Shown here in pieces: positions 48,673 through 48,822 of a stretch of 64,000 nucleotides of DNA. How positions within the stretch are numbered: the first letter of the stretch is position 1; each line of letters begins with the position of its first letter. The position numbers and the translations under genes are program-made. The stretch lies in assembly GCA_021773275.1 (NCBI GenBank), contig JAJFKJ010000018.1, positions 46,390-110,389 of the forward strand. Direction: 5' to 3'. The DNA is from Gammaproteobacteria bacterium. Lineage in GTDB: Bacteria; Pseudomonadota; Gammaproteobacteria; JABCZS01. The notes under the pieces were generated by a model. It did not search any database. It saw nothing but the letters and a program-made list of their open reading frames with translations, and was not told the DNA's origin.

Positions 48673-48822
48673 ATGAATAATAATACTAACCCCAACGATG
48701 CAAAATCAGTGGCTGAAATCTTCGAGGTAATTGAAGCAAATGAAGGCGACGTTAATCTAGGTGAAACACGCCAGGGATGTATCTCTGTGCAAGTCCCCAA
48801 TGATGACGAAACTGACGAGTAG
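48673..48822 (+). CDS. RiPP precursor peptide, trifolitoxin-like core (49 aa): MNNNTNPNDAKSVAEIFEVIEANEGDVNLGETRQGCISVQVPNDDETDE
   Basis: Strong RBS (aagggaggaaatATG). It is the first gene of the operon and was missed by the ORF track because it is shorter than 60 aa. It has an acidic helical leader, and NLGETRQGCIS resembles the TfxA core [11 protein letters not shown]. A hairpin follows the stop. Confidence 0.75.
   Translation: MNNNTNPNDAKSVAEIFEVIEANEGDVNLGETRQGCISVQVPNDDETDE

Follow-up and report, generated by a model that had tools for sequence, protein, structure and literature searches.

A 49-codon open reading frame (ORF) at position 48673 of the window (the whole 64-kb stretch of DNA from an uncultured gammaproteobacterium that was analyzed here) is a real gene and encodes a tiarin precursor. 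Comparison with homologous loci and with the trifolitoxin system makes it very likely that this gene is translated, that it is the equivalent of tfxA, and that the resulting tiarin is of the type predicted to target arginyl-tRNA synthetase (ArgRS). Tiarins are trifolitoxin-like peptides that inhibit aminoacyl-tRNA synthetases (Travin et al., December 2025, bioRxiv 10.64898/2025.12.02.691738). Their defining features are a pair of TfxB/TfxC dehydrogenases and, upstream, a precursor that contains a conserved Gln; the residue before this Gln predicts the targeted synthetase (bioRxiv 10.64898/2025.12.02.691738). Trifolitoxin itself inhibits ArgRS by a Trojan-horse route in which YejABEF takes up the peptide, PepN trims it and the warhead RQGCVA is released (bioRxiv 10.64898/2025.12.02.691738). 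The precursor gene, its conservation and its enzyme neighborhood were shown from sequence (Table 1).

Table 1 Features of the tiarin-like cluster and its upstream region in the 64-kb window.
Feature	Position	Strand	Evidence or remarks
Promoter-like block	48590..48650	+	Conservation; -35-like TTGTTG (48614-48619), 17-nt spacer, -10-like GATAAT (48637-48642)
Shine-Dalgarno sequence	48661-48668	+	Read from sequence; AAGGGAGG, contains GGGAGG; 4 nt (aaat) to ATG
Precursor peptide gene, tfxA-like, 49 aa	48673..48822	+	Direct translation, homologue alignment, codon-position pattern
Terminator-like hairpin	48833..48861	+	Between precursor and enzyme genes; 10 bp stem (7 G-C) at 48833-48856, then TTTTT
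TfxB-like SagB-family FMN dehydrogenase, 354 aa	48873..49937	+	TIGR03605 E 1.3e-31, above its cutoff
TfxC-like SagB-family dehydrogenase, 354 aa	49934..50998	+	TIGR03605 E 5.1e-20; ATG overlaps tfxB stop by 4 bp
TfxF-like nitroreductase-family dehydrogenase, 234 aa	51002..51706	+	PF00881 E 1.4e-14
TfxE-like short YcaO/SagD-like protein, 244 aa	51710..52444	+	Weak profile matches, conserved motifs
PolE/DUF6421-like protein, 354 aa	52423..53487	+	HEGFH (168-172)...EELRVD (196-201); profile and fold matches
TfxD-like MATE exporter, 422 aa	53484..54752	+	PF01554, TIGR00797; start overlaps preceding gene by 4 bp

Translation from the ATG to the TAG at 48820–48822 yields MNNNTNPNDAKSVAEIFEVIEANEGDVNLGETRQGCISVQVPNDDETDE and exactly reproduces the peptide given in the initial annotation of this DNA. 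The peptide consists of a leader motif (SVAEIFEVIEANEGDVN), a variable linker (LGET), the core RQGC, a conserved extension (ISVQVPN) and a variable acidic tail (DDETDE). The consensus ribosome-binding site noted earlier is present, and only its spacer, counted previously as 5 nt, is one nucleotide shorter, which is a trivial difference; GGAG or AGGAG precedes the small ORF at every homologous locus. Tiarin precursors are recognized as ORFs of 23–65 aa with a strong Shine-Dalgarno sequence, located just upstream of a TfxB/TfxC pair, and the ORF at 48673 has all of these properties, with 50 nt separating its stop codon from the ATG of the tfxB-like gene. The folB-tfxB intergenic region contains no further credible small ORF.

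The trifolitoxin core quoted in the initial annotation agrees with the published mature core of TfxA, and the segment NLGETRQGCIS matches it without gaps at five of 11 positions (G, R, Q, G and C). When the peptide is aligned with TfxA and ten other RQGC precursors, residues R33-Q34-G35-C36 do not vary, and trifolitoxin loses its activity upon any substitution in RQGC. One earlier statement, on the C-terminus, needs qualification. The extension beyond the core is a departure from TfxA, but many of the listed tiarin precursors likewise run past the core. In the "acidic follower", variation is confined to the acidic end, and its first seven residues (ISVQxPN) are conserved across the subfamily. 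The tetrapeptide alone is not significant, because one occurrence of RQGC was found in the six-frame translation of the window and 0.47 occurrences are expected by chance (shuffled sequences). Its position is significant, as it lies inside a 49-codon ORF 50 nt upstream of a SagB-type dehydrogenase pair. Hence, the case for the precursor is carried by the position of RQGC and by conservation, and the motif taken alone is weak evidence.

Including that of the window, eight precursors were recovered, i.e., seven further homologues. When 1.84 billion representatives were searched exhaustively by phmmer with the precursor, five proteins were retrieved in total, two of which were new and both of which fit the subfamily pattern, and the sole match of a k-mer protein search with the 49-aa peptide was the peptide itself. 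Relatives of the TfxC-like protein are few, about ten in 5.8 billion clusters. When a genome collection was scanned with this single protein no match was obtained, and a scan of the collection with an alignment matched only a metagenome-assembled genome (MAG) labeled 'uncultured Gammaproteobacteria bacterium' (locus L003), which is the nearest syntenic relative. A tblastn search of a plasmid collection that lacks the Rhizobium tfx locus gave no match for TfxA or for the PolE-like protein. The small ORF occurs at the equivalent position wherever a related contig reaches far enough upstream, and the five homologous precursors with a readable locus all lie directly upstream of the same set of enzyme genes, each with a terminator-like hairpin behind it. 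A check on homologous clusters had been proposed with the initial annotation, and corresponding small ORFs with RQGC[IL]S were found.

The alignment of the precursors is divided into four zones, which are a conserved leader of acidic and aliphatic residues, four variable residues, the invariant block RQGC[IL]SVQxPN, and a variable, mostly acidic tail. The overall pattern reads …[IL]F[DE]I.E.E.GD[IV]N-xxxx-RQGC[IL]SVQxPN-tail, with the exception of Legionella birminghamensis, where EK-DMN replaces E.GD[IV]N. Precursor sequences from related loci are MMNNNNINPTNEKSVTEIFDIIEENEGDINLGEARQGCISVQIPNEDEADE (L003) and, in part, ...EEIFEIVEVEKGDINTKVLRQGCLSVQTPNAGEKSEG (L004), ...ENLFDIVEVEKGDVNTKVLRQGCISVQTPNSDAE (L005) and ...ESLFEITEVEKGDVNAKVLRQGCLSVQTPNSAEEVK (L006). 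The L. birminghamensis precursor is listed in the preprint as MENQVNSIDEIFEISEIEKDMNGVVARQGCISVQTPNASESKEEANAN (bioRxiv 10.64898/2025.12.02.691738), and its segment ...EIFEISEIEKDMNGVVARQGCISVQTPNASE... has the leader motif and RQGCISVQxPN in common with the window peptide. Tiarin leaders (motif 1 of the preprint) are rich in aliphatic and acidic residues; in a comparison of two leaders, EIFEVIEANEGDVN of the window precursor aligns with EIFEISEIEKDMN of the L. birminghamensis precursor. Between the precursors of the window and of L003, differences at the first, second and third codon positions number 7, 4 and 18, respectively. Such a third-position bias is the pattern expected from a coding sequence.

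Downstream of the small ORF, six genes lie in the same orientation, with gaps of 3–50 nt or overlaps of 4–22 bp, and the result is a tightly packed cluster of seven genes, precursor first, of about 6.2 kb. The encoded set of three SagB/nitroreductase enzymes, a YcaO-like protein and a MATE pump corresponds by family to the tfx set, in agreement with the SagB-like neighbors claimed before. The TfxB/TfxC-type pair, which in tiarin clusters is expected within 2.7 kb, is formed here by overlapping genes. Among PDB entries, McbC and CyaGox are relatives of both proteins and 3eo7 is a further relative of the TfxB-like protein, among whose best matches on plasmids are tiarin clusters listed for Natrinema and Thermus. 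Taken together, the TfxA core, the homologous small ORFs and the downstream genes support the original interpretation of a trifolitoxin-like RQGC precursor beside SagB-like genes.

The profile matches of the 244-aa protein are weak. PF02624 was matched in four of six members of its family (best E 0.0098) and TIGR03604 likewise in four of six (best E 0.008). For the window protein the PF02624 match had an E value of 0.18 and TIGR03604 was not matched, and no curated threshold was passed; the L. birminghamensis orthologue matches TIGR03604 with E 3.8e-6. The protein is homologous to the fifth gene product of all related clusters, with conserved K..ELVER and GWACH..A...A..E.YE, which we take to resemble the Mg/ATP-binding motifs of YcaO proteins. 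In the published description TfxE is called YcaO-like, and the Legionella cluster is grouped with the ycaO-containing clusters (bioRxiv 10.64898/2025.12.02.691738). We therefore regard the 244-aa protein with moderate confidence as YcaO-like and as a presumed thiazoline-forming cyclodehydratase.

Of the known systems, the cluster of L. birminghamensis DSM 19232 (L010) is among the closest. Its gene order is the same (precursor, TfxB-, TfxC-, TfxF-, YcaO- and PolE-like proteins, MATE-type transporter), and the window proteins are 49% (A), 45% (B, compared with the first L. birminghamensis dehydrogenase), 41% (C), 37% (F), 33% (E), 38% (PolE-like) and 33% (transporter) identical to their counterparts. 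Both systems also have the leader EIFE.(.)E.E, RQGCISVQxPN and a hairpin after the precursor. In contrast to the window cluster, L. birminghamensis additionally encodes a fourth SagB-type dehydrogenase, a divergent acetyltransferase and a spare ArgRS, and its cluster lies among integrase and conjugation genes, whereas that of the window lies, like those of two uncultured relatives, between folB and plsY, which are housekeeping genes. Compared with the trifolitoxin cluster (tfxABCDEFG and tfxH) of Rhizobium anhuiense T24, the window has in common the RQGC core with a single Cys, the leading position of the precursor gene and, likened by family, three FMN-dependent dehydrogenases, a YcaO-like enzyme and a MATE exporter. 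However, the TfxA leader is basic and the peptide ends two residues after the Cys, whereas the window leader is acidic and 13 residues follow the Cys. A TfxG-like phosphotransferase or TfxH-like acetyltransferase was not seen among the window cluster genes or 30 scanned ORFs, and the PolE-like gene is extra in the window cluster. Linear azol(in)e peptides of the microcin B17 type likewise have SagB/McbC-type dehydrogenases and a YcaO-like protein encoded beside a small precursor gene. Their precursors contain many heterocyclizable residues, whereas the window peptide has a single Cys and its YcaO-like protein is short and divergent; and their dehydrogenases oxidize azolines, whereas the TfxB/TfxC pair is thought to build a Gln-derived chromophore. 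Judged from these comparisons, the window cluster has the defining tiarin features that can be recognized in a sequence, and is a gene-for-gene homologue of a published member.

Several conserved signals surround the precursor gene. The promoter-like block, about 30–85 nt 5' of the ATG, is conserved in comparison with L003, where it reads TGTATAAT, and the remaining intergenic region diverges. With a score of 8/12 the block is below the threshold of a simple promoter scan, and we infer from its conservation that it may be a promoter. A strong hairpin is found directly 3' of the precursor stop codon in six of six loci, conserved in position and not in sequence; that of the window has the longest and most G+C-rich stem among the terminator-like sites in 48100–55500. 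It is probably a partial terminator or RNA stabilizer that raises the precursor transcript relative to the enzyme transcripts. Elements of this kind, which enrich the precursor mRNA, are common in such operons. An Rfam search in and near the cluster gave no match. Further upstream, the folB-precursor intergenic region (48500–48600) contains A-rich repeats (ATGCAAAAAAA twice, and GCAAAAAAAA and TTCAAAAAAA); the longest A-tract there, about 24 nt, is absent from the homologous L003 region. A small hairpin at 48528–48541 (CCCTCAAATGAGGG) could terminate folB.

The sixth gene of the cluster has no counterpart among the seven named trifolitoxin genes tfxA-G or tfxH. Pfam gave no passing match for its 354-aa product, and its L. 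birminghamensis orthologue has a faint match to PF19985 (DUF6421). With a profile of the family, PDB chains of PolE were matched (E 4e-6) over the metal motif HExxH...EELRVD, which is invariant in the PolE-like family. An AlphaFold model of the window protein (pLDDT 70.7, pTM 0.79) retrieved only PolE structures with Foldseek (E 2e-7, TM 0.54), and the next match had an E value of 0.14. PolE (DUF6421) is an Fe/pterin-dependent L-isoleucine desaturase of polyoxin biosynthesis, and its family has the motif HE/DxxH-x(21-23)-E and a fold that resembles DPP III peptidases (PMC12614342; PDB 9j2e, 9j3g). The window protein thus resembles PolE in its modeled fold and in its aligned metal motif, but it is only 16% identical, and one more residue separates its second His from the Glu. 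The substrate of PolE is a free amino acid; the window protein, in contrast, is encoded in a peptide-modification operon. We consider the protein a putative non-heme Fe oxidase. This assignment appears to be new, because the preprint's domain table gives the L. birminghamensis gene as 'not_found' (bioRxiv 10.64898/2025.12.02.691738). The PolE-like gene is present at every locus that encodes the ISVQxPN extension, and we therefore propose that its product oxidizes or processes this extension. A zinc peptidase that removes the leader or the tail had been considered for the HExxH...E protein; sequence and fold favor PolE instead, and a peptidase is retained only as a less favored alternative in view of the resemblance of DUF6421 to DPP III. 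The adjacency of folB, a gene of pterin biosynthesis, was also considered as a clue to a pterin-dependent enzyme, but is treated as a coincidence because folB-plsY is an ordinary housekeeping context.

The cluster is flanked by folB on one side and by plsY-tsaD-rpsU-dnaG-rpoD on the other. The same order of rpoH, a 242-aa membrane protein gene, folB, the cluster and plsY-tsaD is found in the window, in L001/L002 and in L003. Identity is mostly 67–85% for the housekeeping proteins, and it is 45–65% between the cluster proteins of the window and those of L001 and L003 (TfxC-like protein, 58% for L001/L002 and 51% for L003). The last gene of the cluster is the exporter in the window and in L001, and the L003 contig stops inside the exporter gene. 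L004–L006 and the L. birminghamensis locus (L010/L011) contain the same first six genes, and in L. birminghamensis all seven are present in the same order. These loci have mobile surroundings that include integrases, a relaxase and VirB8. The same cluster type thus exists in mobile and in chromosomally fixed forms. The G+C content of the window cluster (48500–55500) is 38–39%, whereas most housekeeping genes in the flanks have 43–47%, with a maximum of 50% at tsaD. This difference is compatible with an acquired island, although two relatives have the same insertion site.

A ParE/RelE-like toxin gene (85 aa, PF05016) and an HTH_3 antitoxin gene (99 aa), overlapping by 4 bp, are located at 54772–55325 between the MATE exporter gene and plsY. 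As L001 runs from the exporter straight to plsY, the two genes represent an additional insertion at the cluster edge. The 242-aa protein encoded between rpoH and folB (47399–48127, minus strand) is a multi-pass membrane protein with no Pfam or NCBIfam match; its position is conserved in L003, where its identity of 54% is the lowest among the products of the flanking genes. Rfam matches in the window are limited to two tRNA genes, at 28191–28264 (+) and 62960–63033 (−). The remainder of the window consists of ordinary housekeeping genes including the atp operon, glmS, uvrD/rep and ftsYEX-rpoH.

Self-protection in tiarin producers relies on GNAT acetyltransferases or on resistant aminoacyl-tRNA synthetase copies encoded in the cluster, and an immunity gene is frequent but not universal (bioRxiv 10.64898/2025.12.02.691738). 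L004–L006 carry a fourth SagB-type dehydrogenase and a GNAT gene (L004, 9353–12023), and L010 (UGNW01000001.1) carries the fourth SagB-type dehydrogenase, a GNAT and an ArgRS gene at 12455–15745. Neither a GNAT acetyltransferase nor a spare ArgRS was found beside the window cluster or among the 30 of 63 window ORFs scanned. The housekeeping ArgRS of Escherichia coli is intrinsically resistant to trifolitoxin (bioRxiv 10.64898/2025.12.02.691738). The window's producer could be protected by export, by an intrinsically resistant housekeeping ArgRS, or by a gene elsewhere in the genome.

By homology with trifolitoxin, the following biosynthetic route can be proposed. The N-terminal leader (…SVAEIFEVIEANEGDVN) would dock the peptide onto the TfxB/TfxC-like dehydrogenase pair, which together with the TfxF-like flavoenzyme would turn Arg33-Gln34-Gly35 into a Gln-derived chromophore. 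The YcaO-like protein would cyclize Gly35-Cys36 to a thiazoline, and the PolE-like metalloenzyme may catalyze an extra step tied to the ISVQVPN extension, either an oxidation or the removal of the acidic tail. After removal of the leader, the MATE pump would export the product. Target cells would then import the peptide and aminopeptidases would trim it to the modified Arg, so that the warhead would inhibit ArgRS as in the case of trifolitoxin. ArgRS is the predicted target because the residue before the conserved Gln is Arg. The active species might not be the same as that of trifolitoxin, since the trifolitoxin warhead has six residues (RQGCVA) and up to 17 residues follow the Arg here.

There is another reading, which we consider improbable, namely that the peptide is modified but is not a trifolitoxin-type ArgRS inhibitor, and that ISVQxPN and the PolE-like enzyme confer another structure, target or role, for example through a second modified Gln at Val-Gln40. 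The extension is indeed invariant in all eight sequences and the residues just before the Arg vary; each locus encoding the extension has the PolE-like gene, and the window cluster is without an ArgRS or acetyltransferase immunity gene. However, L. birminghamensis has the same extension and PolE-like gene together with a spare ArgRS that protects cells against trifolitoxin (bioRxiv 10.64898/2025.12.02.691738) and therefore points to the same target, and the tetrapeptide that is essential in trifolitoxin is also RQGC. That the small ORF is a chance or decayed frame, in a cluster that is silent or uses another substrate, is less probable still, because neither the chance expectation for RQGC in 64 kb nor the k-mer search that returned only the peptide itself outweighs the homologous small ORFs at the equivalent position in five other loci, the two additional relatives in the protein library, the coding pattern of the substitutions, the strong ribosome-binding site, the conserved flanking signals, and the six downstream genes, which are all intact and translationally coupled. 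An ArgRS-directed tiarin remains the reading that we prefer.

Tiarins are a newly recognized Trojan-horse antibiotic scaffold against aminoacyl-tRNA synthetases, and trifolitoxin is the only member purified so far, with a chromophore structure that is still debated. The overall picture of the family, which was already described in 2025, is left unchanged by the locus studied here. Its novelty is modest and lies in the conservation of the extension, the PolE-like enzyme, the chromosomal site, which is fixed, and the immunity genes missing from the cluster. A more far-reaching idea, which we put forward tentatively and consider rather doubtful, is that the Legionella-type tiarins form a distinct chemical subclass in which the product retains [IL]SVQxPN as a segment that the PolE-like enzyme modifies or processes, and that the chromosomally fixed version in the window achieves self-protection by a route other than the known acetyltransferase or spare ArgRS. 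If this were true, it would represent the first DUF6421 Fe/pterin-type oxidase acting on a ribosomal peptide, and the warhead would be an extended one. With neither of the two known immunity devices, the cluster is a useful case for studying producer self-protection and the role of the extension. The locus adds a divergent tiarin of the predicted ArgRS type from an uncultured gammaproteobacterium, encoded in a compact operon that could be expressed in a heterologous host. It also helps to delimit a small subfamily of eight precursors (five of them cluster representatives among 1.84 billion), which is marked by the conserved extension at the C-terminus and by a PolE-like enzyme that had not been annotated before.
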